59,215 nt of DNA, taken from the IMG/VR virus record IMGVR_UViG_3300021961_000106, positions 1 to 59,215 of that record; one strand, given 5' to 3'. How positions within the stretch are numbered: position 1 is the first letter of the stretch; each line of letters starts with the position of its first letter. Below the pieces are notes generated by a model that was given only the letters and a program-made list of their open reading frames with translations, was not told where the DNA came from and searched no databases. Source of the stretch: a virus. Taxonomy: Duplodnaviria > Caudoviricetes. Positions 3,227 through 40,409 of this stretch are shown piece by piece. The position numbers and the translations under genes were made by a program.

Positions 3227-3373
3227 TTACCCTTGACCGCGATTCGGTTTGCGGTAGTTCTTGCTGCCCTTAGTCTTAGAGGTCTTCGTCTTAGCATGAA
3301 CGCCAGGTCTTCTAACCTTCGGTTTGACCTTGTACGAAGAGGAGTTTAGCGAACCGCCTTTAGCCTTTGCCAT
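3227..3373 (-). CDS. Very basic 48-aa protein
   Basis: Manual read MAKAKGGSLNSSSYKVKPKVRRPGVHAKTKTSKTKGSKNYRKPNRGQG. Confidence 0.6.
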   Translation of the reverse strand: MAKAKGGSLNSSSYKVKPKVRRPGVHAKTKTSKTKGSKNYRKPNRGQG

Positions 3374-3518
3374 ATGGGAACGCCTTGTTTAGAGCCTCCT
3401 TGCGCTTAGAGCAGCCGCAGTCCTTGCCAGTAATCTTACTATATTTGTCAGCCATCTTCTTGATGCCCGTGGCGATGGTCATCTTCTCGATCGTATCGCC
3501 CAATCCCTTTGATTTCAT
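3360..3518 (-). CDS. Small phage protein with GLGDT...DCGC..RK..LN motif
   Basis: Start set to MKSKGLGD, 4 nt downstream of a TATATTTG promoter motif. Confidence 0.65.
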   Translation of the reverse strand: MKSKGLGDTIEKMTIATGIKKMADKYSKITGKDCGCSKRKEALNKAFPYGKG

Positions 3519-3587
3519 ATAGCAAATATAGCACATGTTCACATGTGCTATCTATGAAGTATTGTGGCTCTCTCTGAAGTAACGTGG

Positions 3588-4555: not shown

Positions 4556-4688
4556 CCTTCTTGTAGCGCATGTCGTTGCTATCCTTGACACCCAACAACA
4601 GCCCACTCTCGCTAGTTTTCTCTTGCTCCACGACCTCCTCGACCAGTATGTACTTGCCGATGGCCTTGATATTGTCTAGTTTGCTCAT
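4407..4688 (-). CDS. groES: Co-chaperonin GroES (Cpn10)
   Basis: IKAIGKYILVE..EKTSESGLLL..ATVLAVG..VIREQDVV. Confidence 0.9.
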   Translation of the reverse strand: MSKLDNIKAIGKYILVEEVVEQEKTSESGLLLGVKDSNDMRYKKATVLAVGTECHHALKEGLLLYVDKTAGHPILVNGVSCYVIREQDVVLVC

Positions 4689-6214
4689 AAATCTCTTACA
4701 TTAGATACAATAACTGACGTTCCCATGATGGTAGAGGCCACACTTACTGCGTTCTGCAGTGCCGTTCTGGTTACCTTCGCTGGGTCAGTCACCCCCATCT
4801 CAATCATGTTGCCGTAGCGCTGCGTTCTCACGTTGAACCCTAGCCCTGGCTCGTCCATCTGACCCTCCACGTAAGCCCAATCGTCGCCAGCGTTCTTCAA
4901 AATCTGACGCATTGGCGCCTTCAGAGCCTCTTTTAGGATGGCTGAGGCCTTGGAGTTTGACTCGACTAGTGCTGTAGTAGCGTTATGTAACGCTACTCCG
5001 CCACCAGCGAGGATCCCCTCCTCGAGGGCTGCGCGCACAGCGCACACAGCGTCGTCCACCCTGTCCTTCTTCTCCTTCTGCTCAATCTCAGAGTCAGCCC
5101 CAACGTATATGATACCAATGCCGCCCGTCAAGTTTGCCAGCCTCTGCTGCTCAAATGCGTCTGTTGAGCCCTTTAGCGCCTCGATGCGGGCGTCCACCAC
5201 GCTCTGCTCGCCACGACCGCCCACAATGACCGTCTGCTCCTGGCTTGAGATGACCTTGTCAGCCTTACCCAACCAGTCCATACCAACCAGGCTCAGCTCG
5301 TCGCCCGTGTCCTCGCTCACCAACCGAGCGCCGACCATGGCAGCGATGTCCTCCATCAGCTCCTTGCGTCGGTACCCAAAGTCGGGAGGTAAGATCTGGC
5401 ACACCTTGATCGTGCCCTTCATGGCGTTTACGTTCAAAGTGTTCATAGCGTTCATCCCCATCTCGGAGATGATGAGCAAACTGTCGCCGTTCTGCACAAT
5501 AGGTGCCAGCACGTGCTCGAGCTTGGAGAGGTTCTCAATCTTCTGATCGGAGACGAGGACGTAGGGGTTCTGAAGAACCCCTTCATTCTTCTTCTGATCC
5601 GTGATGAAGAACCTGGAGCCAATGCCCCTGTCAATCTTAATGCCTTGGATAATCTCAGAGTATGTCTCTGACGTCTTTGAGTCAGCCACGCTCACGTAGC
5701 TCACCTGCTTGTAGGCATCAGCAATGAGCTCGCCTATCTCAGCGTCACCGTTGGCGCTCACTGTCGCCACGTCCACCAGCGTCTCGTCCGTCACTGGCAC
5801 TGCCATCTCCTTGAGCGCGTCCACCACCTTGGCGGCAATGGCCTGCAGCTCACGGGTCACCGTTCCCATGTCCACGGCACCACCCAACTGCTTGCGGGCC
5901 TCGTTGATGATGGCCTGCGTCAGCACAATGCTCGTGGTCGTCCCGTCTCCAGCCTGAGTGGCTGTCTTCTCGGATGCCTCACGGGCAATGCCCACAGCCA
6001 TGTTCTCGACAGGGTCAAGAAGGTTAATGGACCTTGCCACCGAGACACCATCCTTGGTAATGACCACGCCATGGGTGTGGTTCTCAGACTCGATCAGCAC
6101 CGTGCGCCCCTTTGGGCCCAGTGTGCTCTTGACAGCGTCAGCCAGCGTGTTGATGCCGCTGATTAGTTTCTCTTGGCCATCCTGACCAAAATGTACATGC
6201 TTTAAAATTGCCAT
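4685..6214 (-). CDS. groEL: Chaperonin GroEL (Cpn60), phage type
   Basis: TLGPKGR, ITKDGVSVA, AGDGTTT, AGGGVAL and DPAKVTR motifs. Start set to MAILKHVHF, downstream of the promoter motif at 6232-6239. Confidence 0.95.
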   Translation of the reverse strand: MAILKHVHFGQDGQEKLISGINTLADAVKSTLGPKGRTVLIESENHTHGVVITKDGVSVARSINLLDPVENMAVGIAREASEKTATQAGDGTTTSIVLTQAIINEARKQLGGAVDMGTVTRELQAIAAKVVDALKEMAVPVTDETLVDVATVSANGDAEIGELIADAYKQVSYVSVADSKTSETYSEIIQGIKIDRGIGSRFFITDQKKNEGVLQNPYVLVSDQKIENLSKLEHVLAPIVQNGDSLLIISEMGMNAMNTLNVNAMKGTIKVCQILPPDFGYRRKELMEDIAAMVGARLVSEDTGDELSLVGMDWLGKADKVISSQEQTVIVGGRGEQSVVDARIEALKGSTDAFEQQRLANLTGGIGIIYVGADSEIEQKEKKDRVDDAVCAVRAALEEGILAGGGVALHNATTALVESNSKASAILKEALKAPMRQILKNAGDDWAYVEGQMDEPGLGFNVRTQRYGNMIEMGVTDPAKVTRTALQNAVSVASTIMGTSVIVSNVRDL

Positions 6215-6314
6215 AGATTTGATTCTTGGTGCAAATATACCAAGACCATACCAATTAGGCAAGGACTGACAAGGTGTCTTGTGTGAGCCCCAACCTAACA
6301 GCGTAGCTGCTAGG

Positions 6315-14830: not shown

Positions 14831-15225
14831 ACCACAAACACTACATGCAAATCGCAAACATTGTGGCCAGTGCGTCGTACTGTAACAGGGCACAAGTTGG
14901 TTCAATCATTGTGAAGGATGGCAACATCATTGCCATTGGATACAATGGCACACCTTCAGGTTGGCCGAACATCTGCGAAGATGATAGTGGAAAGACAGAG
15001 GAGTGGGTGCTACACGCGGAGTCAAACGCCATTGCCAAATGCGCAAGGGCTGGCTACTCAAGCGATGGTGCTTCAATTTACGCGACGCATTCACCTTGCG
15101 TAGAGTGCGCCAAGTTGATTGTTCAAGCTGGTATTGCAAAAGTTTATTACGGACAAATTTACCGTTGCACAAAAGGTCTCGGTATATTAATATTGCATGG
15201 CATTGATTGCGAACAAGTTATATGA
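14827..15225 (+). CDS. dCMP deaminase
   Basis: GYNGTPSG, HAESNAI and SPCVEC zinc motifs. Confidence 0.92.
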   Translation: MNHKHYMQIANIVASASYCNRAQVGSIIVKDGNIIAIGYNGTPSGWPNICEDDSGKTEEWVLHAESNAIAKCARAGYSSDGASIYATHSPCVECAKLIVQAGIAKVYYGQIYRCTKGLGILILHGIDCEQVI

Positions 15226-15377
15226 ACATCAGAATTGTAGAAGCCAAAGTAAACGGCATCCCTTTGTGGAGGGTCTATGTCAACCAAAATGTTGAGGCCA
15301 CATTCCCAACATATGAGGCAGCCCTAAAGTACGCCAAGGACCGGTCAAGATTTGGAGATGATAATTCCGTCACTTAA
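15222..15377 (+). CDS. Hypothetical 51-aa protein (paralogue of 17306..17458)
   Basis: MNIRIVEAKVNGIPLWRVYVNQNVEATFPTYEAALKYA. Confidence 0.65.
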   Translation: MNIRIVEAKVNGIPLWRVYVNQNVEATFPTYEAALKYAKDRSRFGDDNSVT

Positions 15378-15656
15378 CTGACGCTATTTAGCTAAACTCC
15401 GTCAGTCTGGGCTATATATCGGTCATTTATAGCCCAGATTTGACCGATAAAGTCTCATTAAAGGCATAAAAACATGGTCAAATATGACCTATAAAACAAC
15501 ATTATGGCCCAAGGCTGACCTATATGCAAATAAGTATAATTAAACCTATAAGTTTAAAATAAGCGTTAAAACATATACCCGAACGTGAACAAATGGGCGC
15601 AAATGATTAAAAATAGGCGCAGATTAACCCGAACGGGAACAACACCAAAGCGAGAA

Positions 15657-15869
15657 ATGAAAACACCAATGCAAGAACTATTGGAGTGGGTTAGAACAAC
15701 CCTACCAATGGATTTAGATACATCAAGAATGATTGAGGCAAAGATTGAGTCAATGCTTGAGAAAGAGAAGGAGGTGATTATGAATGCTTATATATTTGGC
15801 ATTCAAGATGAATATGTAATTGGCTCACAAAGATATTATAACGAAACCTTTAACACCAAAGAGAAATGA
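15657..15869 (+). CDS. Cassette ORF (MKTPMQEL...EKE.I..AY...YYNETFNTKEK)
   Basis: Starts and ends within J motifs. Confidence 0.7.
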   Translation: MKTPMQELLEWVRTTLPMDLDTSRMIEAKIESMLEKEKEVIMNAYIFGIQDEYVIGSQRYYNETFNTKEK

Positions 15870-16075
15870 CACAACAAGAAAGAACATCATCAATAAGATT
15901 GGATGAGGTGAAGATAACCCTACCAATCGTGTGGAGTTCAAGGAAATCAAAGATATATTCTTTGATACTAAGGGACTCAGCGGGAGTATACCATTATTTT
16001 AATCCCGATGGTACTTATGATGGGTATTCGTCAGATCCACATATAGATGGAATGACGGGACAAAGTTTGAATTAA
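15866..16075 (+). CDS. Cassette ORF, hypothetical
   Basis: Starts in J; its stop lies in the next J. Confidence 0.6.
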   Translation: MTQQERTSSIRLDEVKITLPIVWSSRKSKIYSLILRDSAGVYHYFNPDGTYDGYSSDPHIDGMTGQSLN

Positions 16076-16087
16076 CACCAAAGAGAA

Positions 16088-16128
16088 ATGAAAACACCAA
16101 TAACAAAACATACGGAGGTAACAAATGA
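16088..16128 (+). pseudogene. Empty or deleted cassette remnant
   Basis: First 23 nt match the start of ORF 16517 (one mismatch), joined through AAACA to the last 23 nt of the same ORF. Confidence 0.6.
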
Positions 16129-16469
16129 AGATAGAACTAAAATGCCCATTTGAAATGGACACATCCACATCAAGTGCCACTAAATGTAAACTTTGTGGTC
16201 TAGAAAAATGGAAACATCAAAAAGAGATGAAAGAAGAACAGAAATTGGATAAACCACTAAAACCGCAACCGAATATACCTGCAGTTGTAAGTAATCCTAT
16301 TGAATTAGTGTCAGTTTTAGCTGAGATAGAACACATAAACAATTTAGGTAAATCAACATGGTATGAAGTTGTTTACTTTGATGGAAACTGGAGATGTTAC
16401 GCTGGTAGTAAAACATTCAAAGATGGTGAAAGAGTTATTAAGTGGAAATATGCTAAGGATTGTTTATAA
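16125..16469 (+). CDS. Cassette ORF with CxxC
   Basis: Starts in a K motif; CKLCG. Confidence 0.6.
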   Translation: MKIELKCPFEMDTSTSSATKCKLCGLEKWKHQKEMKEEQKLDKPLKPQPNIPAVVSNPIELVSVLAEIEHINNLGKSTWYEVVYFDGNWRCYAGSKTFKDGERVIKWKYAKDCL

Positions 16470-16516
16470 CAAAGATAGAGATAAGATTAAATGTAAACCT
16501 TTAACACCAAAGAGAA

Positions 16517-16768
16517 ATGAAAACACTAATAACAAAACAGATTGCAGACAGATTAGAAGAGCTAGCTGTACAATGGAAAGACCACACATCACAAGCAGAA
16601 GCCTTAATGATGGCAGCTAAAGAAGTAATGACCTTTCAAGAGGAAGAGAAAGAGCAGATGAGATTAATTTATGAAGGATTATTGCAAAACATAGGAACAT
16701 CTATAAAGCAATCGGATTTGCCAACATTTGAAGAATATCATGAACAAACATACGGAGGTAACAAATGA
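16517..16768 (+). CDS. Cassette ORF (MKTL...EKEQM...EQTYGGNK)
   Basis: Starts in J, ends in K. Confidence 0.7.
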   Translation: MKTLITKQIADRLEELAVQWKDHTSQAEALMMAAKEVMTFQEEEKEQMRLIYEGLLQNIGTSIKQSDLPTFEEYHEQTYGGNK

Positions 16769-17004
16769 ACGAAGTAACAATCTTTATTAATCGACTCAAG
16801 AAAATAGGTATTGAGTTAGAACTCGCTGGCAATTATCCTTGGATTTATCTTGAGAAGGTGAATGGTAATAGAGTACAGCCTGAAGATTGGATTAATGCTA
16901 ATCACGGCTATACTATAGCTTGGAGCCCAGTACGTAATGATCAAGATTACCGTCTTGACCACGATTGGAAGGAAATGTTTCGCATAATTAGAAAATATAA
17001 ATAG
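16765..17004 (+). CDS. Cassette ORF, hypothetical
   Basis: RLKKIGIE.EL.GNYPWIYL..VNG motif; starts in K. Confidence 0.65.
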   Translation: MNEVTIFINRLKKIGIELELAGNYPWIYLEKVNGNRVQPEDWINANHGYTIAWSPVRNDQDYRLDHDWKEMFRIIRKYK

Positions 17005-17130
17005 TGCAAAATAAAGCACTTTAATTCGGAAAAGTTCCGAATTACGACAGAATTTATACCAATAGTGTAATTTAAGGCTCAATTTCAAACCAAAATGAGC
17101 CACAAATGTCCAATAAATGAACTAAAAAAC

Positions 17131-17313
17131 ATGACATACAAAGTAACATATCTACCAGAAAACAAATCTAAAGGAGGTTTCAGAACTCTTAAGGACGCAT
17201 GGGACTACATCGCAGAGAGCTTCTGTGATGAGTGCTACAAAGAATACATAGATCACGGAACACACGGGTCATGCTCAGACCCATGGGACATTGAACAAGT
17301 AGAAGATGAATAA
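17131..17313 (+). CDS. Hypothetical protein with CxxC
   Basis: Start MTYKVTY after an A-rich spacer; CDEC...C. Confidence 0.55.
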   Translation: MTYKVTYLPENKSKGGFRTLKDAWDYIAESFCDECYKEYIDHGTHGSCSDPWDIEQVEDE

Positions 17314-17458
17314 AAACATCCGCATCGTTGAGGCCATCGTCAATGGCCTGCTGCTTTGGAGAGTGTATGTGAACATGCACTTGGAAGCAACATTCCCGTC
17401 ATACGAAGAGGCCCTCAAGTATGCGGTTGATAGAGAAGGAAGGGCCGTAGAGTTATGA
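17306..17458 (+). CDS. Hypothetical 50-aa protein (paralogue of 15222..15377)
   Basis: MNKNIRIVEAIVNGLLLWRVYVNMHLEATFPSYEEALKYA. Confidence 0.65.
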   Translation: MNKNIRIVEAIVNGLLLWRVYVNMHLEATFPSYEEALKYAVDREGRAVEL

Positions 17459-17622
17459 TCCGCAATATAATTAGCATGATTTCCATGCGCCCTATTGAAT
17501 TCGCGTATTTTGACGAATACGACAACAAGGACGTTTGGATTCATATTGACAAGTACGGATCTGAGTTTATTGCAAATTTGGGATACATTCCCTTTTTAAG
17601 TATTAGAATAAAAATAAAATGA
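17455..17622 (+). CDS. Hypothetical 55-aa protein
   Basis: Manual read; ATGA overlaps at both ends. Confidence 0.5.
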   Translation: MIRNIISMISMRPIEFAYFDEYDNKDVWIHIDKYGSEFIANLGYIPFLSIRIKIK

Positions 17623-17798
17623 AAACTTTAGTAATTTTGGCTGTGTACGCTATGAGTATTGGTGGGTTCCAGTATGCATTTAAGGAACCATCTACGGGGC
17701 GCACTGGCCGCATGAGACTACCAGAAGAGATGAAGGTTGGAGATACTGTGGTCATTGACTCCTTGTATAGGATCATAGACTACAGACCCATCCGATGA
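17619..17798 (+). CDS. Hypothetical 59-aa protein with hydrophobic N-terminus
   Basis: Manual read MKTLVILAVYAMSIGG...; ATGA overlaps. Confidence 0.5.
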   Translation: MKTLVILAVYAMSIGGFQYAFKEPSTGRTGRMRLPEEMKVGDTVVIDSLYRIIDYRPIR

Positions 17799-18034
17799 TT
17801 GACAATTTGTTAACAACTTCATTTGCACAGGACCTAAAGCCCGGTGTATTTTTGTACCTCCACCAAGAAAAAAGATTTGTCTACATCCACTACATTGAAA
17901 GATACGAAGACTCTGTGCTGGCGGCATTCGCTCACACAGAAGTCGGTGAAGGAAATGTACAGGTGGACATCTTTGACATCGACAAGGATGCCTTGGTGGA
18001 GTACTTCGAACCATGCCAAATACAACTCAACTAA
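17795..18034 (+). CDS. Hypothetical protein
   Basis: 79-aa packed ORF. Confidence 0.55.
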   Translation: MIDNLLTTSFAQDLKPGVFLYLHQEKRFVYIHYIERYEDSVLAAFAHTEVGEGNVQVDIFDIDKDALVEYFEPCQIQLN

Positions 18035-18035
18035 A

Positions 18036-18251
18036 ATGGAAGACAACGTAAATCACCCTAAACACTATACCCAAGGAGGTATTGAATGTATCGACGCCAT
18101 CGAATCATCCATGACTCAGCAAGAGTTCCGTGGATACTTGAAGGGGAACATACAGAAATACATCTGGCGGTATGAGTTAAAGAAAAATCCTGCTGAGGAC
18201 TTGAAAAAGGCTCAGTTTTACCTAAACAAACTAATTAATACATTTGAATGA
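18036..18251 (+). CDS. DUF3310 family protein
   Basis: DNVNHPKHYTQGGIECIDAI..GYLKGNIQKYIWRY..EDLKKAQFYL. Confidence 0.9.
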   Translation: MEDNVNHPKHYTQGGIECIDAIESSMTQQEFRGYLKGNIQKYIWRYELKKNPAEDLKKAQFYLNKLINTFE

Positions 18252-18889
18252 AAACAATTTATGAAACCTTGTCGAAGATCAATGTCAACGACAAGACCGA
18301 AAAGAAAGGTAGTCAGACCTACCTATCATGGGCCCATGCATGGGCTGAGATCAAAAAGTTCTATCCTGGCGTTCAGCGTAAGGTGTACGAAGACCACAAT
18401 GGATTCAACTACTTCACAGACGGCAAGACCTGCTGGGTCAAGGTCGGTGTAATTATTGATGAACTAGAGCACATTGATTACCTTCCAATCATGGACATGC
18501 GCAATAACGCTATCCAGTTTGAGAGGGTCACATCATTTGATGTAAACAAAGCCATCCAACGCTCAACGGCAAAGGCTATTGCCATGCACGGACTTGGCCT
18601 GTACATCTACGCCGGAGAGGACATGCCAGAGGCTCCCGTATCTACTAAGGACAGCGTAGTTTCCACCCTTCAGAAAGATGGGTTTAAGATTGCCACAGAG
18701 GCAGACATGGACGCGGCTGGAGTAATTGACTTCAAAAAACTCACCGAGTTCATGAAGCGAGCTGTAGACAGAGGAGACTCATGGGAGACTACCATTGCCA
18801 CAATCGAGGCAAAGAAAGGCGAATTAGCACCAACAACAAAAGGCAATATTCATAATGAATTCAATAGACTTGTTGCGGAGCGACGATAA
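18248..18889 (+). CDS. Sak-type single-strand annealing protein (DUF1071)
   Basis: YLSWAHAW...LPIMD.RN...NKAIQR...KAIAMHGLGLYIYAGED. Confidence 0.85.
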   Translation: MKTIYETLSKINVNDKTEKKGSQTYLSWAHAWAEIKKFYPGVQRKVYEDHNGFNYFTDGKTCWVKVGVIIDELEHIDYLPIMDMRNNAIQFERVTSFDVNKAIQRSTAKAIAMHGLGLYIYAGEDMPEAPVSTKDSVVSTLQKDGFKIATEADMDAAGVIDFKKLTEFMKRAVDRGDSWETTIATIEAKKGELAPTTKGNIHNEFNRLVAERR

Positions 18890-19574
18890 TTACTACGGCA
18901 CGGAAGGCCGCAAGTACTTATCAAACTCAGACATCCGCGCACTTCTAAAGGATCCACATTCCTTTCGAAAGGAGCAGCCGAAGTCTGTAGCGATGGTGGA
19001 GGGTTCGTACTTCCACACGGCAATGCTAGAGCCACACAAACTAGACCAATTCAAGTTTGTTGACGCTAGCACACGAAACACAAACAAGTACAAGGAAGAG
19101 GCTGGAGGAGATATTATCCTTTTGGAGAGCGAGAAGGTGGAGCTCGACAGGATGGTTGATGCCCTCCAGTCTAACCTTGAGTTGTACGAGATGATATACG
19201 CTGAAGGTGCTAAGTTTGAAGAGCCCGCCATTGGTGAGATAAAGCATACAATGTGGAAAGGAAAGGCAGATGTTCTGACAGGTGACTACATTGTTGACAT
19301 CAAGACCACATCGTCGATCGATGAGTTTAAGTGGTCAGCGGCTAAGTACAACTATGACTCTCAGGCGTGGATATATAACCAGCTGTTTGGTCGCCCGCTT
19401 GTGTTCATCGCAATCGAGAAGAAGACATGCCGCACAGGCGTATTCGAATGCAGCGAGAACTTCCTTGACAAGGGCAAGGAGAAGGTCATGCGTGCTATCG
19501 AGGTCTACAATAGGTTCTTTGCCCCTGATTCTAAGGAGCTGTTGAGCCAGTATTTTATCAGTGAAACCCTTTAA
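18855..19574 (+). CDS. PD-(D/E)XK exonuclease (RecE/DUF3799-like)
   Basis: LSNSD, GS.FH...LEP, KGKAD, DIKTT and Y.YD.QA.IY motifs. Confidence 0.85.
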   Translation: MNSIDLLRSDDNYYGTEGRKYLSNSDIRALLKDPHSFRKEQPKSVAMVEGSYFHTAMLEPHKLDQFKFVDASTRNTNKYKEEAGGDIILLESEKVELDRMVDALQSNLELYEMIYAEGAKFEEPAIGEIKHTMWKGKADVLTGDYIVDIKTTSSIDEFKWSAAKYNYDSQAWIYNQLFGRPLVFIAIEKKTCRTGVFECSENFLDKGKEKVMRAIEVYNRFFAPDSKELLSQYFISETL

Positions 19575-27108: not shown

Positions 27109-27131
27109 AGGGCCCCTATGGGCCCTTTTTT
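27109..27131 (+). terminator. Terminator at the convergence of the two arms
   Basis: AGGGCCC-CTAT-GGGCCCT-TTTTT. Confidence 0.7.
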
Positions 27132-30100
27132 ATTCTCCTTTTGTTATCTCGGCCTTCTTTACTTTGGCCTGAATAACTCCGCCTGATTGGGACTCGGATT
27201 TTCCTTTTTCTAAATCCTTATATAGATCTTTTATTAGAATCCTACGTAAATCTTTGTAAAGAGGAACAAATCCAAGGTTGCCCATTATTTCGAGTGGCGT
27301 TCTTGTTGTTAGTTCTTTCATTCTTCGTTCTCTAGCTTCCTCTGTCTTTAAGTCTGTCTTAGATGCTACCTCGATTGCTCTCGATACAGCAGAAAATGCT
27401 GGAGAAAACGCGCCGGAGAATGTCTTAATATATTGAAGTATATCGCCTTGGTCTCTCTTTTCCTTGGGAATAACTGTGTACTGAATGGCGTCTTTGTAAG
27501 GATCATACTCTCCTGTGCGCATAGAGTCTAGGTATTTTTCATTGAACTTTTCTACGGCTATGTTTATTGGAGCCTTTACTACGTTTCCAAAGTTTCTTCC
27601 CAACAAAAGACCAGTAAGTGCCGATGCTGATGCTTGCGCCATGTCTTGCAATAGCGTGTCGTCATCTTCTTCTTCATCACCAAACAAAGAAGACAACAAC
27701 AATTTAACCAGCTGCGTAGACATAAAGCTATACATAATCATCCTTGATAAGCTTGCTCCTATAATAGCAGCACCTTGTGCTCGTGAAATCTTTCCTTCAC
27801 CCATCAATGCATACACTCCTGTCCTAGCTGTAGAATATTCGTATATCAAGAATCTTGTCATGAAGTTATTGTATTTATTAAAAGCTTGTCTCAAGAAACC
27901 CTGATTCGCAGTGTTAGCGCCCTTCAAGATTCCAGTAAATGGGTTATCTGAAGCACCAACTCGAACGCTTGTTTCGTCAGCCTTTGCGCTTGCTTGTCTA
28001 ATTGCGTCACGGTATTTTGTCAGATAAACCTCATCCCCTTTTGCTATCTTGTTGAAGTCTACGTCTATACCTGTCTGAGCCTTGAACTCTCTAGCAAATG
28101 AGCCAAACCATAATGGTTTCATTACAATTTTATCTGGCGTAGAGATTAAGTAGTCTGACGTCGTTTCTGCTACGTTCTTTACTTTCTTTAGGGAGTTATT
28201 GTATATAATACTAGATGCGTTTGCTACGTCATTTAATGAGCGACCAGCTTTTATTCCGGATGCTTGAGACATCGTTTCTTTATCGATAATCTTACCAGAT
28301 AGTTTACTACCTGGATATAGTCTTTCGATTTGCTCTGAGTTAACATTGCGCATCACATCAAGGCCGTCTTGAGACATTACGATATTCGAATACCCCATGC
28401 CATCAATAAATGATTTTGGATCATATAGTGCTACAAATGATAGGTTAGACGCAAGTTCAGCAAATGCCCTTGGCACACTAGCAAGCATGGCTCTATAGCC
28501 AGTTTTTTCTACGTAGCTAATAGCATCTTCAACAAAGCTAGTCTCTGTATATGAGTTAGCAAGTACGTTTGAAAGTGACTGCTCAAGGACTCTTGATATT
28601 GCGTTTACAATCTTCTTAGCTTCTCCTTTAGTATTGGTTTTTGCGTAGTTAAGAGTTCTCCTTGCCGTACGAATTGGTTCAGTCAAATGGTAATCCATCA
28701 ACAAATACTTTGCCCCACGAACAGTAGAAGAGAAAGGATCAAACACCAAAGGCGTAACCTTGCCTGTGCGCTCCTCTAAGCTTTTAGCCTTAGTAGAAGG
28801 TTTCATTGACGCATTAAATAGGTCAGCGATATTTAGATCCGTCACATCATCAATAGCAGATTTTTCCATCAGCACATTGTGGTGTATGTATTTATTTATT
28901 GATCCAACCTTTCTTCCACGGATAATAGCAGAGGTAAACGAAACCTTATCGCTCATCGAGTCATTGATCTTGGTGATCATCTCAATCGCCCTTTTCTCAG
29001 CCTTATTAAATGTTTCGTATACTGCATCGAGATCAATTTCTTCCTCTGCAAAGAATTTATTACGGATGTCCTTTAGGTTTTGGATATCTTTTTTGCTGTA
29101 TGTGTTTTGGTCATTCTCTTCTGCATAGTTAATGGTCTCATCAAGGAATGCCTTTGCAGAATTGACAGCTTTATCTCCAATGTTTGACTGGTACTCTCGC
29201 TGAAGCATAAACGCCATCATCTTCTGCTTTGAGTATTGAGTCTTGTTTGGGTTGTTCAAGTAAGACTTAGCTACATCAGAAAGTGCCTTGTCTAGGTTTG
29301 ACATAATTGTATTTATATCACCTTGATACTTACTATACGCCTGAGAGACTGGCTTGAATATAGAATTAAATATTGGTCTTGTGTTGAAGTTTCCAAATAA
29401 CTCATCAATAAAGAAAAGAGGGTTTCGCTCAATTGCCTTTACTAATGCACTATTTTCTTTGCCAAATAGAACTTTCATTCTAGATATAACACCTTCAAAA
29501 GGAAGTTTCTTGGCGTTTTTGGCTGCATTGGCAAGCTCTTCTCCACGGTTATACTGGTTCATCTTTTCTTTGATGATCTGTGCATAGTGTGGCAAGAAGC
29601 CATTTTCTATGTTGTCAAGTACGCCTAGTAAATCCTTAAGCTCCTTATTACTCATCTTGTCGATAGCGCCTGTCTTAATGAGCTCATAAATACTTCTAGC
29701 CAAATTACGCTCATCTACGGTTGGAAGCTGAGAGAATATAGGCGTATAAGACTTTACTTGATCAACAAGCTCTAAGCGCTCTTCTTCGATCTCTTCTTCT
29801 GATCTTGGATCTTTTTTGGTTCTCTCCATGATCAATGACTTGTACTTTTTAAGAAGCTCTCCATCTTCTGGAGAGATTGATCCATCGGCTACCATTTTGC
29901 TTATGGTCTCAGAGTACATCAATTTTCCATCTTTGTCTACCTCTTTGTCTTGGTAATTGCTGAATACTTCCTCTAGTGCCTTGACTCGCTCTATTTCACC
30001 CTCTACTGAAGATAGTATGTTTTTTGCCTTGTTTGTTACAATATCTATATCGGTAAGCCCAAGAACAGTTCTACGCTCAGAGAACGTCTCAACAAGCTCA

Positions 30101-33100
30101 GCGTAGTCATTAAACACATTCTTTGGAATCGTATAGGCGTTTAGCGAGAATACTTTTTGCAATAATGGAGAAAGGCCATCTGCGATACCAATCTTTGTTG
30201 CTGCGTTACGCTTTGCTATTTTAAGGCTGTTGTTAAGTTTGTAGGCTCTCTCAGCAAACTCGGCATTCTTCATCACCCTTTCTAGATAGTCAATGAAGCT
30301 TCTAACACTTTCAGCATCTACCAATTTTACTTTTGAAGCTTTGTTGAGTATAGCTCGCATCTGGAAAGCGGTAATTTTACCACTTGTTTTAAGCCTCATG
30401 GCTTCCTTTCCAATGCCACGAAGCATGCTCTGCATAAAGTCCTCTGCATATTTTGCAGCCTTAGCTCTTTCTGCAATGAGATTTGTATTTGTAGTAAGGA
30501 TTTTATCCTCTGGCTTTATGCCTAACACACGATGAACTCTAGGTGCTGACTTGATGCGCTCACCAAGTTCTTTCTTGATATCACGTACCATCTGCTCACG
30601 CTGAGAGTCGTTGGCGATCTCGTACACCTTGCTTGTCTGAAGATATCCTATAGCGTCTTCAAGTATTCTGGCTTTGTTTGCCCCTCTCTCTTTTGCCTTT
30701 TCAATAACTCCATCAAGGTTTTCCCGCATGCGGTCGTAACCAGGAAGATCTTTGTAGTTGATCTTCTGAGAGCGAGCGGTGATTGTAGTGGCTGACTCAA
30801 CGGCAGATACAAGGTTTGGATTTTCTCCGGTTTCTTTTGCAATAATATATGCTCTTGCAACTTGGTTAGACAATACTTGCTTCTTGTTTTTTGGAGTGCC
30901 ATCTTGATTAAATCCATATGCATCAAAATCAAATGGAGAAACCCTTGGTAAATCGGTGGATCCGGATTTCTCATTAATCTTAGCCACTTCTTTATCGGTA
31001 AGCACTCTATTGACTTTCATTTCGCCAGATATAATCCAGCTTCCTGTCATATTTGAATTTGTCTTATACTTATAATTACCAAGAGCTGGTAACTGGTCGG
31101 TTATATGGGCAGTCCTAGGTATAATTTTACCGTCTTTTGTCTTTTCTGCTCTATTATTAGCTTCTGTTTGCCAGTCAAAATCATCACCAACTTCAACTTC
31201 AGCCCATACCTGATCGCTATCTCTTAATGTTGGAGCTTTGTCGCTTGGATTTTTCTTTGATCCAATATGTGTAGCAATTGCGAACTCTCCAGAATGCCAG
31301 CCTGGCCTATAGGCCAATGGTCCAAGAGTTGACTTAACCATAGTCTTTCCTTCTTTTGTTGTGGTCAATTCGCCAGCCTTTGCAGCAATCCAATCTCCAG
31401 TTGTAACAGATTCATTAGCCCCAACAAAAAGTGGAAATAATTCTCCAGGAAATCCCTTCTTTACTTTAAATAATTTGTAGGCTTTTTGTGTTTTATTAGG
31501 TGCTTTTACATCTTTATGAATTAAATCTTTTAAAGATTCAAGTTCATTGTTGTCTAGATTGTTTAATGACGATGAAAGCGCCTTGACCTCAGATGGATTT
31601 ATTTTTTGTGACCTAGCGCTTAATTCTATTTCTCCATCTTGAATACCAAAGTTATCATTGAGCGTTTCAATTTCCTCGGTAGTAAGTTTTACTTCTTTCT
31701 TCTTGGCGGCGCCCGATGTGTCGGTATTTCGTTCTTGAGCGTTATCGATGCCATCTTTGAACTCTTTTACAGAAGAGCCGTATTTGTCGCCCATTGCTCC
31801 ATCCGTTTCTATGTCAGATCCCTCAAGCACAGACAAGTCTCCAGCTTTTAGTTGTTCTAAAGAAAACACCCCGTCATTTACTCTATTAACGAGTCTATTG
31901 GCAGATGATGAATATGTTGCGTCCTCCCTTTGTTTGACCCCTAGATGTCCAAACAGATTTTTCTCATAAATCCACAATATTGCTTGAATGTCTGATACGG
32001 ATAATTTTTGTCCAGACTCTTTAGCTATTTTATCTCTGGCGGCTTCAAATGCCTTTTTTGTAAAGCTTCTAAAGTCCTTTGCATATTGTTTTTTATTTGA
32101 AACACCAGACTCTATGCCTTCAGATATGTCATTAACAACTCCTTGCGCCTTCTTCCATATTTGATCGCCTTTTCTATATGGCTTCAAGGCCTCGTTTCTT
32201 TCGGCCTTTGCAATTCCTTTGTATTTACCACGGCCCCCAAGAATTGCCTGGAATAGTTTTGAATGCTCTTGCGCTAAGGTTAATGCATCTGAATATGACA
32301 CACCATCTATGCCATTGGCTTCTTTAAAATCTTGCATTTCATTTTCAGAAACCTTAGACCTCATATCGCCCTTATACCGATATATGGTTCTAATACACCA
32401 TCTATCAATGGTAGGCGTTCCGTCTAGCCCAGATAGGTTAGAATAAAACGCTCCAATCTTAGGCCCAAATATTAAAACGGACATTGGCAACATTTCATTG
32501 CTATTCCACTCTGGGTCTGTTGCTAAGTTCTGTGACTTCGCCTGTGCATAACTGCTAAGACCAAATTCTTTTAATAGGGTTTTGCTTAAATTTGATACCG
32601 TGTCAATTTGCTGTAAGAACTCGGCTGTTTTTACAGGATCATTATTAAATTTCTTTAATATATTATTGTACCTATCTATACCAGATGCAATAGCGCTTGC
32701 ACCTTTGCCTGTTCCAACATCTGTAGGTACTTTCCTAGTTTTCTTAAACTGATCTATTCCATATATTACCCTGGTTAGATTTTCATATACGGCTGTTGAG
32801 TTTGAAGCAACAGCGATAATAGCAGTGGCGGCTTCCTTTATGGCTGGGTTATTTTTTATATCTGAATCCAGTTTTGAAAGGATGTCAAGTGCTTTTGCAT
32901 AGTCTTCCGTATACCATCCTTTTCCAGAATCAGAGCCAAATTTTGACATCGCAAACAATATCTCATTCTTGGCATAGTCAGATACAATATCCACTGCATT
33001 GTCAGAAAAATCAGTAATTCCTAGTGAGCCGTATGTTTTTTCATAATACTCATTCATTGCAGAGGCAATGTCATAGTTTGTTACCTTTGATTTCCCTGTC

Positions 33101-36100
33101 TTTGGGTTTATTGTTCCAACCTGTATTCCAAGTTTTTCCATTGCGCCATCAAAGGCATCGATAACTTGTTTTCTAGCTGTAATGTCTTCTTCAGTAGCGC
33201 CTTGTTCTTTCTCTTCAAAGAACTGCTCAACTGTCTCGCCTTTTGACACCTTTTCAGAGATGGTCACCATGAAGTCAATGATGTTCTCTGGTGTGGCATC
33301 CTTTAAGAATACCTCTTTGCCAGTCAGCTCAAGAGCAAATTTGTTGATAATGTCCTTGATCTTTTCAAGCAGAGTCTTTTCTTGCTGCGTTAGGTTTTTA
33401 GGATCAAGACCACCCTCTACCAACATGCCACCAAACTCAGCCATGTACTCACGGAACATAGCCTCTGTGCCCTGATCAGCATATTCGTTTGAGAACTTTG
33501 TAAGAGCCTCCGCTACATCTTCGTATCCAGATACCTTCAGCTGGGCATCTATGGCCTTTCTAAACTCTGCAAACTTTTCTGGGTTTTGCCCAAACGCATC
33601 GTTCAGCATCACTTCCCAGGCCTCATGACCAGCTGTGCGGTTATTGGCCTGTGTCTTGTTGATTACAATAGCAATTGGCTTTGCTCCTGCAAACAGGGCC
33701 TGACCACGGACATTTGTGAAGCCATCGGCTACCGCTTGGGCTTTTTCTGCTCCATACCTAGGAGTCAATGCCTCTACAATGCGAGCCTTCGTGTCTTGCA
33801 GCTTATCCCCAACAATAAACTCAACCTCTGGGAATGCAACGCCAAGAGCGGTAGACGCTGCGTCGATGCTCTGCTTAACTTCAGATGGGGTTGATGTTAC
33901 TGTTATTTGCTCTACAGCAGGAGCTTCTTGAAGAGCCCTTGCTTGCTCTACAAAAGAGTCACGATAGGCCATAGCCTTGTCGTAATTATCAAAAGTCTTC
34001 TCCTCAATATCAAGCTGGTTGTTTGGATCATACACCATGGCTACAACATCGGGTGTGCCATGTACTTCTTTGTTCCATCCTTTTGGAGCAAACTCTTCAG
34101 CAAACTCCATTCTTGAAGCAATCCTAAAACCGTTTTTCTTGTATACTTTTGTTAGGTACGTATCAAAGTTGTCTAGCTTGATACCACCATTTTTTACAGC
34201 CTCTTTCAAGACGTCATCTGCCACTCCTTTTCGAGTAGTTTCTGGAGTCTTAAACACGCCCTTAATGTCGCCTTCTGGAGATACAAATCCATAGCCGCCA
34301 TCAACAGATACTATAGTACCACTCTTTGCTGTTTCGAGTTCAACTGGATCTACGCTCCAGTAAAGTGTTGGGTCAGACACTTTTGTACGGTCGAGCTCCT
34401 GTACGTAAAACTCGGGCGTTACTTCTTCGACTTTACCTTCTTCGATAACGACTTTAGGTTTTGTTTCTGTTTTTGTTTCTCCATTCTTTTTCAGGATAGG
34501 CAAATCTATCTTTACGACGTTTCCATCTTGTCGTATGTTACTTTCATTTAGTCCAAGTTTTTGAATATATGGCAATACAGCTTCTTTGACTTTGTTAAAT
34601 TGCTCATCATTATATACCCCTACTGGTGAAAATTTATCAGAAGGAATGGGTACTCCTAAATCATTAACTATAGAGGCTCCATTAATACGCACTTCAGTTG
34701 TTTCTACATTCCCATTTTCGTCGTATTGCAATTCATATCCTCTATCTAATTGTTGATTCCAAAACCTAAGTCCATCTGTAGATATGCTTGTTTTTTCTGT
34801 GTATTCGTGTCCAATGGGGAGCATTGACTGGACGCCAGCCAACATTATTTTTAAATTCTCTTTGTTTCTAGATGCATTCTCTAGTTTTGAGCTCCATTTA
34901 TTAGTTGGTTTCCCGTCTTCATAAAGACGATAGAATCCTACAAAATTACCAGCTGAAGTTCCTGTTACAACCACATCAATAGAGCCTGTTTCTGGGTTTG
35001 CATATTTTACAAATTCAATTCCATTGTTTTTTGCATAATCAACAGGAACTGCATCAATGTTGCTTTTGCCTAGTGCTCTAGAGAATTTACCAGCTGTGAG
35101 AAAAGTTTTTTGTTCTATCTTAGATTCTGTTTCTTTTCTTCTGTCTTCTATCTCATTTACTGGGATTATGTTTTCTTCGACTTTACCTTCTTCGGTAACG
35201 ACTTCAGGTTTTGTTTCGGGTGCTCCTTCCGCCATTTCTTCGCCAACTCGGGCTTCTGGCTGAACAGGAACTTCACTTGTTGTTTGCTTTTGAACGGCAT
35301 TGTTTTTTACTCTTTGAACTAGTTCTTGTCTTTTGTTTATTAATGAAATAGCGCTTGACTTAAGATTCTCAAGTGCAATTTTCTTTGCATCTTCACTCAT
35401 TGTAGTGCTAGCTTTAATAGCATCGGCATCTGCAATGTTTTTATTTAGTTTTGACTTTATCTCAAGCATTTCAACAATGTCTTGATTAGTCATATTGTCA
35501 ACGAAATCAGAAGCTCCTTGAAGAACTTCTTCTCTCTTTAATACAATTGATCGTGCTGCAAATGACAAAGCAGCCAACTCTGCTGGATCATTTGTGCTAG
35601 TCATAGCACCTTGTAGACTCGCTAGTTGTTGGTTTGACTCGCGAAGCCAGTTTGTAGCTTCTTTGGTCATTGCGCTAACCTCAAGATATGGCTTTACCTT
35701 TTCTTTATATGCGGATATTGACAGTGATGGAGCCGACATTCCCCCTCCGCTAAAAGCACCAATGAGTGCGGCATCAAAAACACGCTCAGAGAATTGTTGT
35801 AAAGTGATTGGCTTGCCTAAAACTAAAGCGTCTGCACCTTCTTGGACAACAGATGTAAGCCCTTCTGTCGTTCCCTCTAGTCCAACTGCGCTAATAAATT
35901 CGCCAGCTATATTTTCGGAAATCTGTTTAGACGCAATTGAATTTCCTATAGACGCTCTGGCTAATCTATTCATACCAGCCGATCCAACCCCTTCTAGAAC
36001 GCCTTCTGCAAGACCATTAATAACGGCCGTGCCAAGCAATTCTTTAGATATTGTATTCCCTTCCTTCAGTTCTTGGTCTATCTTGTTTACAGCCGTTACT

Positions 36101-37236: not shown

Positions 37237-37289
37237 TGCTAGAAGTCTTTGCGACTCCTGCAAATATACGCAATATTACCATTGCGGTC

Positions 37290-39680: not shown

Positions 39681-40409
39681 TTATGGGTAACTCTTGAAGA
39701 CCTCTGAAGATACTGAGAATAACTCAACGTCTGTAATGCTATCATTGGTGAGCTCGACTTGCATATAATATCCACGAGCACCAAATGATTCGGCTTGGCT
39801 ATTCTTGATATAAAGAATAAATGCTCCTGGAGAAGGGCTGCTCAAAAGTGTTGCGACAGTTATGGAGGACCCTGTGTGTGCTGTAACAACACCAACTTGC
39901 AGGATAGTTCCTGCGTTGTCATAATAAACAACATCACCTACGCTAATCGCAGAAGGTACAGAGAATGTAAAGTTAAGAGTAGTGCCTACTATCGATTGCA
40001 ATGCACCTATTCCCTGAGCAGATAACAAATCCAAATCTGTGGCACCTGTGTTTCTACGGATATACGTGAAGTAGTTACCTTCCTTCAGATCATAGTAAGC
40101 AGCATCCATAGACCCAGACGACATGTCTGTAGTGATAACGGTGTCCCAAGGGCTGTCGCTCTCAAGCTCCATGGTCTTAAACATCTTAGCCTCTAGTGGG
40201 TCTTGGTTAAATACCATTGTTACTTGAGAAGGCGTGAATGTTCCATAGAATGTATTCCTATCTTCATTTGGGTCGTTATGAACATATATCTCACCGTTCT
40301 TAAAGGTATAGAATCGGCCAGACATCCCAATCATCCACTCTGGATAATAGGAATGGAAGGACGTCCATCCGTCAGCCTGTGGTGAATATGTAAGTGTATA
40401 TGTAGCCAT
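39681..40409 (-). CDS. Tail nozzle C-terminal part
   Basis: TLTYS....GWTSFHSY.PE...FYTFKNG.+Y.H and G.RGYYM.V.L motifs. Confidence 0.6.
   Translation of the reverse strand: MATYTLTYSPQADGWTSFHSYYPEWMIGMSGRFYTFKNGEIYVHNDPNEDRNTFYGTFTPSQVTMVFNQDPLEAKMFKTMELESDSPWDTVITTDMSSGSMDAAYYDLKEGNYFTYIRRNTGATDLDLLSAQGIGALQSIVGTTLNFTFSVPSAISVGDVVYYDNAGTILQVGVVTAHTGSSITVATLLSSPSPGAFILYIKNSQAESFGARGYYMQVELTNDSITDVELFSVSSEVFKSYP

Follow-up and report, generated by a model that had tools for sequence, protein, structure and literature searches.

Recurring stop/start connectors between small genes of uncultured aquatic phages and their position at mosaic breakpoints

Why should a row of small phage genes be joined again and again by the same short sequences, each of which supplies the start codon of the gene that follows? 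This question is raised by a single complete phage contig of 59,215 bp (IMG/VR record IMGVR_UViG_3300021961_000106; 44.3% guanine plus cytosine (GC) overall), which was analysed at its full length and is referred to below as the window, and in which two motifs, named J and K, punctuate an array of five small open reading frames (ORFs) situated between a deaminase gene and the gene for a Sak annealing protein. An initial annotation, made from the sequence of the window, had placed this array in an AT-rich island, which proved correct, as the segment at approximately 15450-17250 has 32-37% GC and the DNA alongside it 42-50%. It had also proposed that the motifs are standardised connectors which enable small genes to be gained or lost as cassettes, a proposal that is examined here.

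J (AACACCAAAGAGAAATGA) is present in exact form at 15852-15869, 16074-16091 and 16503-16520, and K (AAACATACGGAGGTAACAAATGAA) at 16106 and 16746, the numbers of matches expected from shuffled sequences being 0.09 and 0.00 respectively, with none of 100 shuffles reaching four copies of J. All six copies of the two motifs lie on the + strand, are confined to 15.6-16.8 kb, and end at or contain an ATG. The search for J in the window allowed substitutions only, so that the copy with an insertion, J', was found by reading the sequence; the count of four J and two K given in the initial annotation therefore stands for both copies of K and for three exact copies of J, whereas the fourth J (15642) carries 2 additional nucleotides (nt). 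The description of the motifs as near-identical is likewise true of the copies within J and of those within K, but J and K differ from each other. As had been stated, each of the five intact ORFs takes its ATG from a motif, and two of them also end in one, the ORF at 15657 with ..TFNTKEK-stop in J and that at 16517 with ..TYGGNK-stop in K. The elements of the array are as follows (aa, amino acids).

15642-15661, + strand: J', variant AACACCAAAGCGAGAAATGA of J with a 2-nt (GC) insertion, giving the ATG of gene 1 (15657)
15657-15869, + strand: gene 1, 70 aa, belonging to the MKTPMQELIEW...YYNETF family, ending in TFNTKEK-stop within J
15844-15869, + strand: J1, full 26-nt connector AAACCTTTAACACCAAAGAGAAATGA, with the last codons and stop of gene 1 and the ATG of gene 2
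15866-16075, + strand: gene 2, 69 aa, non-family cassette between J1 and J2, no Pfam or PHROG match
16074-16129, + strand: J2, 5' stub of a family gene and K1 (J, ATGAAAACACCAATAACAAAACA, then K), deletion remnant
16125-16469, + strand: gene 3, 114 aa, starting from K1, C-terminal half matching PHROG 23756 (function unknown, E 7e-24)
16495-16520, + strand: J3, full 26-nt connector AAACCTTTAACACCAAAGAGAAATGA in a non-coding context, giving the ATG of gene 4
16517-16768, + strand: gene 4, 83 aa, family member with its ATG from J3, ending in TYGGNK-stop within K
16746-16769, + strand: K2 connector, Tyr-Gly-Gly-Asn-Lys-stop, with GGAGG 8 nt 5' of the ATG of gene 5
16765-17004, + strand: gene 5, 79 aa, starting from K2, matching PHROG 38683 (function unknown, E 2e-17)

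None of the ORFs of the island scored above the Pfam cut-offs, and the two PHROG matches listed were the only ones obtained. J3 is located 26 nt past the stop codon of gene 3 (16469) and still includes AAACCTTT. The composite element at 16074-16129 agrees with 16503-16539 at 36 of 37 positions over 16074-16110 and then continues like 16751-16769, its stub being 23 nt from the 5' end of a gene resembling the one at 16517, and by this comparison it is the remnant of an internal deletion. J and K stand back to back here, with 14 nt between them, as they do with 8 nt between them in another viral contig (L199, 1873-1921), and such joints look like empty cassette sites. A further J-like match at 16213 (3 mismatches) lies within gene 3, heads no ORF and was taken as chance.

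Both motifs extend far beyond this phage. In exact-word searches of IMG/VR, at least 122 stretches proved to contain J and 117 the 22-nt core of K, and after the removal of contexts identical over 100 nt on either side 140 contexts of J (among the matches listed) and 110 of K were left, the ORFs between and around the motifs being very diverse when tabulated; approximately 450 loci were handled altogether, those fetched by motif being labelled L001-L239 and those of a control sample, described below, L320-L443. The J matches are not a product of chance, because positions -8 to -1, which were outside the query, are 65-93% conserved as AAACCTTT, with conservation at background level on both sides, and because ORFs start at the motif ATG: counting ORFs of 40 codons or more, and those still open where the locus ends, one begins there in 102 of the 140 J contexts and 98 of the 110 K contexts. 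The flanking genes are small (mostly 40-100 aa) and their 365 proteins fall into 150 clusters, of which cluster 0, a protein family ending in YYNET[FY] to which genes 1 and 4 belong, precedes 55 different downstream clusters.

According to hidden Markov model searches, 43 of the 70 upstream ORFs that run into J with a length of 30 aa or more lie outside this family, ending in ..NTKEK, ..FNTKEK or ..ETFNTKEK, and the same is true of 96 of the 115 ORFs downstream of J; upstream of K, 70 of 86 ORFs are family members and 16 are not. Fewer than 15 codons are open upstream of J in 36 of the 140 contexts, and J begins 3 nt past a tRNA-Arg (L007) and a tRNA-Met (L086), the gene downstream of J at these two loci being the same as the one that follows a ..YYEETF gene in L010. 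The connector is a unit at the nucleotide level and more than the end of a protein. Both motifs occur together in the window and in only 5 of the 239 loci fetched by motif, and the median GC content is 39.9% for J loci and 34.5% for K loci. No paper containing the motif strings or YYNETF/YYNETYGG was found, subscription journals and bioRxiv supplements lying outside the search.

The relationship between the connectors and mosaic breakpoints was evaluated by comparing all pairs of contexts, with ungapped extension outward from the motif and a minimum of 60 nt for a shared flank. For J, 27 pairs shared the left flank only, 44 the right flank only and 2 were collinear, the corresponding numbers for K being 12, 40 and 5. 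In 65 of 75 flank-sharing pair-sides for J and 46 of 62 for K, homology ended no more than 10 nt past the motif, against a background hazard within shared flanks of 0.042 (J) and 0.022 (K) per 10 nt, which means that homology loss is 20-30 times more frequent at the motif than elsewhere. The far ends of the shared segments often lie at the next connector (L014/L064/L097; L017/L033/L034/L058/L091, with a 25-codon ORF; L028/L045), those shared by L141/L142/L194 ending at a ..GGGEQ-stop connector, so that the segments behave like cassettes that have a boundary at either end.

Relatives of the phage itself were located via Sak, and two of them, a contig of 62.8 kb (L242) and L243, share with the window a core of approximately 74% nt identity. 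The parts of the window that enter into the comparison, apart from genes 1 and 2, are listed here.

15207-15377, + strand: left flanking small gene, 56 aa, paralog of the ORF at 17306-17458, with 76% identity over 41 aa to this right-hand copy
17095-17622, + strand: 72-aa ORF, a repeat copy of the flanking gene (50 aa, 17306-17458) and 55-aa ORF, forming the right part that is absent from L242/L243
17619-17798, + strand: MKTLVIL.. gene, 59 aa, standing directly after gene 2 in L242/L243 and having an exact J 5' of it in L035

Gene content is not fixed among these genomes, in agreement with what the initial annotation had implied. Genes 1 and 2 have orthologs in L242/L243 (87-89% and 79% nt identity), between which a NUMOD4+HNH_3 endonuclease gene is inserted inside J, the motif being split after ..TTTAACAC and the HNH gene ending in ..AAAAGAGAAATGA. 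The segment 16089-17618 of the window is missing from both relatives, with both edges at ..ATGAAAAC, and gene 2 is followed there by the ortholog of the gene at 17619. This segment ends with the second, 76%-identical copy of the left flanking gene, of which L242 has a single copy (3353-3523, encoding an identical 50-residue C-terminal sequence); this fits an unequal crossover at a J copy, and the 1.5-kb segment was most likely joined in by such a crossover with another phage, the second copy of the flanking gene arriving with it. In the arrays of L025 and L076, genes are also headed by J-like leaders that carry 1-5 changes, so that exact J is not required for a gene start, and the exact identity of the motif across unrelated flanks points to recent spread and homogenisation as a better explanation than constraint alone.

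With regard to the inserted HNH gene (L242:4688-5071; L243:1338-1722), ..ACAC is found on either side of it and homologs are present in L070 and L115, the one in L070 having a full J on one side and a J-like copy on the other. The gene could be cargo, or a source of double-strand breaks near connectors.

From where might such connectors have been derived? The dominant upstream cluster comprises 119 proteins of approximately 75 aa with a common layout: they begin with MKTPMQELIEW or QTAVEWL, carry QAKEMEKEQI at their centre and, after a variable loop, have AEQYYNET[FY] at the C-terminus. The family has at least 1031 homologs at E<=1e-3, all of them named just 'hypothetical protein' and none having a Pfam domain; for gene 1, the protein atlas contains viral hypothetical clusters exclusively, and the AF2 model consists of two helices (4-15 and 20-64; predicted local distance difference test score 79). 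In frame with this C-terminus, J encodes YYNETF-NTKEK-stop and K encodes YYNETY-GGNK-stop, in each case with the next ATG overlapping the stop, and the two motifs have the prefix TACTACAACGAAAC in common. When a control sample of 125 contexts was fetched on the codons TACTACAACGAAAC alone, these were found to be mostly the C-terminus of the family followed by at least 12 other short tails, each letter-exact in several contigs, e.g., ..ETFKSE-stop (with the ATG 4-5 nt on), ..ETFKQQEQ-stop, ..ETFGGNNE, ..ETYGGGEQ-stop and ..ETYGGDK-stop. J and K are thus two of at least 12 connector types and alleles of a broader class, since the control contains this number of recurring tails. They are not a device of this particular phage but variants of the 3' end of one large gene family. 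The connectors probably arose as the 3' end of a gene for a ~75-aa protein of this family, fused to the leader and ATG of the next gene, and at present they also stand behind unrelated genes, tRNAs and non-coding DNA.

The central block of the family is itself a point at which sequences switch, as gene 4 shows: its first ~47 residues are nearly exact to proteins of L143/L159 and diverge fully past the EKEQ block, so that gene 4 and its counterparts read as an intragenic mosaic at the conserved centre of the family.

Folded as DNA on either strand, J and K reach a minimum free energy of 0 to -0.8 kcal/mol, which is no better than that of shuffles, and this lack of structure suits a translation start. 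Repeat searches and folding found no inverted repeat or attC-like hairpin at the motifs, no terminator-like site was found there on the + strand, no Rfam family matched them, and a scan of 15100-17800 for sigma-70-type promoters, outside which Bacteroidota-type promoters fall, placed none at J or K and found 5 sites where 9.8 were expected. In K, GGAGG is located 8 nt before the ATG and its spacing is kept in other tails even though the residues differ, an indication that selection acts on the RNA. J is rich in purines, has no Shine-Dalgarno (SD) sequence and carries G at -3. Both J and K would act as translation starts.

Reportedly, Bacteroidota ribosomes ignore SD and favour A at -3 (PMC6847099; PMC13000453), with adenine at -3 being a reported positive determinant in Flavobacterium (PMC6847099). 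The hosts are probably Bacteroidota, the clues being a BT4734-like primase, a crAss-type muzzle-protein domain and the fact that 4 of 7 J-bearing genome contigs belong to metagenome-assembled genomes of Flavobacteriales/Saprospiraceae. The tails as a whole are of two styles, one having a well-spaced GGAGG (GGNK, GGDK, GGGEQ, KGGEQ, GGEK) and the other being A-rich without SD (NTKEK, KSE, KQQEQ), which would be odd if all the hosts were Bacteroidota, with ribosomes that reportedly make no use of SD.

The initial annotation also ascribed to this phage a Sak protein and an exonuclease, and Sak and a PDDEXK-type nuclease are indeed encoded, 1.2 kb downstream of the island.

18248-18889, + strand: Sak single-strand annealing protein (Pfam PF06378, E 7e-38)
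18855-19574, + strand: PDDEXK-type nuclease, DUF3799 (Pfam PF12684, E 4e-22)

Rad52-like phage recombinases are described as producing mosaicism through homology-driven exchange that tolerates high divergence (PMC3945230), and Sak together with the PDDEXK nuclease would presumably perform the exchange at J and K.

Parts of the region are also found in metagenomes of marine, estuary, freshwater and lagoon origin, in 24 runs from 16 studies. Among Logan contigs from four studies (runs X2-X5) none spans the island, and the contigs instead run from connector to connector (15844-16099; 16100-16522/3; 16746-16958/17024), those of X3 and X4 corresponding exactly to the gene 2 cassette (15843/4-16096/9), with loose ends of mixed sequence clustering at 16490-16495 and 16525-16532. 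A contig end lies no more than 150 nt from the motif in 21 of 80 IMG/VR loci for J, 5 of 80 for K and 6 of 80 for the YYNET control. Such a pattern is that of a repeat with many alternative neighbours and does not prove that recombination took place in this phage. Bins bearing a motif have a summed depth 10-100 times higher than the others, and in X3 the word depth is 201.8 for the gene 2 contig and 12.6 for the Sak-region contig; as contig depth is not copy number, the excess hints at look-alike sequence in many other genomes of the samples. Contig joints such as 15869>16495, 16522>16747 and 15773>16495 were considered as deletions or circles and rejected, their sides being just 20-30 nt long.

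The explanation that we favour is that J and K belong to a class of widespread, unstructured gene-boundary connectors of 20-27 nt in uncultured aquatic phages, in which an ATGA overlap joins the last codons and stop of the upstream gene to the start codon and leader of the next. The occurrence of the same exact sequence at many junctions, within and between co-occurring genomes, would permit short-homology recombination by which small accessory genes could be inserted, deleted or swapped, each retaining a working stop and start, with the annealing enzymes presumably being the phages' own, here Sak and the PDDEXK nuclease. The descriptive core, namely that the connectors exist, are widespread and stand at mosaic breakpoints, is stated with high confidence. 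The full mechanism, in which boundary sequences serve both to start translation and as crossover points of short homology and in which homology at the connector would drive the exchange, is considered probable, though by no means certain. It may further be speculated, with less conviction, that a few exact linkers of 20-27 nt constitute a community-wide adapter system across many aquatic phage lineages, in which a J pool of ~40% GC and a K pool of ~35% GC would be bridged by genomes like this one, and a gene between two linkers could be moved into any linker-bearing genome in frame and translatable.

A number of points weigh against so mechanistic an explanation. The preponderance of family members upstream of K means that K is for the most part the conserved terminus of one family, and the exactness of the motifs is ascertained, since the loci were chosen by exact motif; among the 125 tails of the YYNET sample, which is free of this bias, J accounts for only 4 and K for 3. 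Before the pairs were counted, overlapping loci of one contig had been dropped, as had collinear duplicates from different contigs (approximately 23 K pairs and 3 J pairs), and with these duplicates restored the share of homology lost at the motif becomes ~0.43 for K and ~0.80 for J; ungapped extension, moreover, reads an indel as homology loss. Several pairs, including gene 4 versus L143/L159, switch at the internal EKEKEQ/LEKEKE block of the family, and in L240, which is 98.9% identical to the window downstream, the joint is away from any connector, at the 9-nt sequence GGACGCATG. Most breakpoints lie at J or K, as had been anticipated, and others at the EKEKEQ block or at the microhomology of L240; of the proposed role of the connectors in cassette gain and loss, the supply of starts and stops and the variable gene content are upheld, and the exclusiveness of the motifs as breakpoints is not. 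In phages generally, the boundaries of genes are also those of mosaics, and selection for intact genes could suffice to put breakpoints there without any homology. The repeated motifs, the remnant at 16074-16129 or other organisms account for the short-sided joints in the assemblies. Recombination is read here from the positions of breakpoints, no event having been seen directly, and the assignment of the hosts to Bacteroidota is weak.

In L240 the joint can be followed in detail, L240:1-100 aligned with window 17120-17260 consisting of the 5' part of a MKTLVIL-type gene fused to the window sequence from 17192 onward at GGACGCATG.

Could the motifs then be start-associated sequences only, i.e. 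a preferred leader, a ribosome-loading site or a site bound by a translational regulator of the phage, with breakpoints surviving at gene boundaries and homology playing no role? This would agree with the fact that a real ORF begins at the ATG with which every copy ends, with the GGAGG spacing maintained across the tails GGNK, GGDK, GGGEQ, KGGEQ and GGEK, with the unstructured nature of J and K and with the L240 joint, which places microhomology joints in this region, and it has a precedent in the conserved start-associated repeats of Cluster K mycobacteriophages, for which the mechanism is given as unknown (PMC3203893). A start signal, however, does not demand an exact 18-26-mer, given the variants with 1-5 changes that head genes, and yet the exact block recurs among unrelated flanks in the 140 listed contexts. 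Illegitimate joints would not put the same 26-mer on both partners, the partial connectors on unrelated proteins (..NTKEK, ..FNTKEK, ..ETFNTKEK) resemble crossovers inside the block, and J carries G at -3 rather than the A that PMC6847099 reports as the positive determinant for Flavobacterium. We therefore regard a pure start function as unlikely.

That the motifs are plain paralog ends, left by tandem duplication and divergence of one gene family without any exchange, is suggested by the size of this family, by its share of the upstream ORFs (92 of which make up cluster 0, with 70/86 at K and 27/70 at J), by the many downstream genes that begin with MKTPMQEL.. and by the prefix TACTACAACGAAAC common to J and K; non-family proteins nevertheless predominate on both sides of J (43/70 upstream, 96/115 downstream), J also stands behind tRNAs and non-coding DNA, and flanks that are nearly identical on one side of the motif and continue into unrelated genes on its other side are not producible by divergence, which makes this explanation highly improbable and already largely refuted. 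Least probable of those considered, and barely credible, is that J and K are sites targeted by an enzyme, be it an integron-like recombinase or an HNH endonuclease whose cuts trigger repair and the co-conversion of neighbouring cassettes. The HNH gene within J in L242/L243, between ..TTTAACAC and AAAAGAGAAATGA, and its L070 homolog between a full J and a J-like copy would be expected from it, but the 54 ORFs of the window include no integrase or site-specific recombinase detectable with Pfam, the motifs have no inverted repeat or hairpin, and homologs of the HNH gene occur in just 4-5 of the ~450 loci and not in the window. HNH homing as a general mechanism was rejected on this count, and the HNH gene looks like cargo.

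The connectors may be compared with several known systems. In T4-type phages, short repeated regulatory sequences, the promoter early stem-loops (PeSLs), flank small and mostly ORFan genes in a variable region (Arbiol et al. 2010, PMC2839356; Comeau et al. 2014, PMC4122927), with indels and replacements between related phages located at the repeats, a feature encountered here in L242/L243 and in the J and K pair tests, and with homologous recombination between the repeats as the proposed shuffling mechanism. A PeSL is an intergenic sigma-70-type promoter with a terminator hairpin, neither of which J or K has according to the sigma-70 scan and folding; the connectors, at 18-27 nt, are shorter, lie partly within coding regions and would operate at the level of translation through a stop/start overlap. 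Mini-circles have been shown physically for PeSLs. The start-associated sequences (SAS) and extended start-associated sequences of Cluster K share with J and K a conserved asymmetric motif just before the ATG, in one orientation, in a non-structural region and in front of varied gene families, the upstream stop codon sometimes being inside the motif (Pope et al. 2011, PMC3203893). The SAS consensus is 5'-GGGATAGGAGCCC, and as both sequences and hosts differ the analogy is functional only; SAS are described within one phage cluster, with no mention as mosaic breakpoints in the accessible text (PMC3203893), unlike J and K, which are present in more than 100 contigs with unrelated flanks and derived from the 3' end of a protein family.

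Integrons likewise contain co-oriented, small and mostly unrelated genes with a recurring site between them, and gene content that varies among relatives. The expression "integron without an integrase", used in the initial annotation, can nonetheless be retained as an analogy only: there is no integrase (54 window ORFs, Pfam), no attC-like hairpin site, and J and K overlap coding ends and a start codon. By analogy, the best reading would be that the connectors work like the PeSLs of T4 and not like an integron.

The idea of boundary sequences is said to go back to Susskind and Botstein and to the HK620 paper. The linkers of modular theory are short conserved junction sequences proposed as sites of homologous recombination between otherwise unrelated DNA, and boundary sequences are reportedly unidentifiable at most mosaic boundaries, hence illegitimate recombination is favoured (PMC3029335). 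J and K have the linker feature of the same short sequence at the junctions of unrelated modules in different genomes, and in contrast with the linkers of that theory they are explicit, exact and numerous and combine a stop, a leader and a start. Boundary sequences are thus explicit and abundant here, as exact 18-27-mers at more than 100 junctions of unrelated small genes, and the idea becomes testable in a defined system; should the adapter system be real, it would be the clearest natural case so far of mosaicism through boundary sequences, acting via translation signals and not promoters. A very large family of small phage proteins without Pfam domain has also emerged from the analysis, and its 3' end probably seeded the connectors. 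The latter explain assembly breaks of metagenomes in such regions and could be used as anchors when cassettes of accessory genes are recovered from aquatic viromes.

Upstream of the first connector, the window contains a further element that is likely to be regulatory.

15577-15642, + strand: non-coding stretch with direct repeats, ACCCGAACG[T/G]GAACAA twice and GGGCGCAAAT / AGGCGCAGAT, likely regulatory

These repeats are kept in L242 (3895-3950), and pairs of 'TAGGCGCA' are also found 5' of J in L016, L069, L105 and L121. More generally, the paired words (A/T)AGGCGCA(A/C)A and ACCCGAACGGGAA stand just 5' of the first connector in several arrays, and may be operator or promoter elements of small-gene arrays.

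When 15200-17500 was compared with GenBank phages using blastn no relative of the island was found, the sole matches (16347-16469, 72-75% nt identity) corresponding to the C-terminal ~40 residues of gene 3 and to hypothetical genes of Erwinia, Serratia and Xanthomonas jumbo phages; this piece is a small domain common to very distant phages. In the same region Rfam produced just one sub-threshold hairpin match, at 15397-15448, which was judged to be chance.

Elsewhere, the genome encodes a dCMP deaminase, a ribonucleotide reductase-like protein, a GroEL-type chaperonin (window 4685-6262, - strand; Cpn60_TCP1, E 4e-55) and two giant ORFs of 3377 and 1779 aa without a Pfam match (27130-37263 and 40409-45748, both - strand). 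The gene that adjoins these ORFs (39681-40409, - strand) carries the C-terminal domain of the crAss-virus muzzle protein (E 1e-16), and together with them it indicates a crAss-like structural module, in which the 3377-aa protein may be a virion RNA polymerase.

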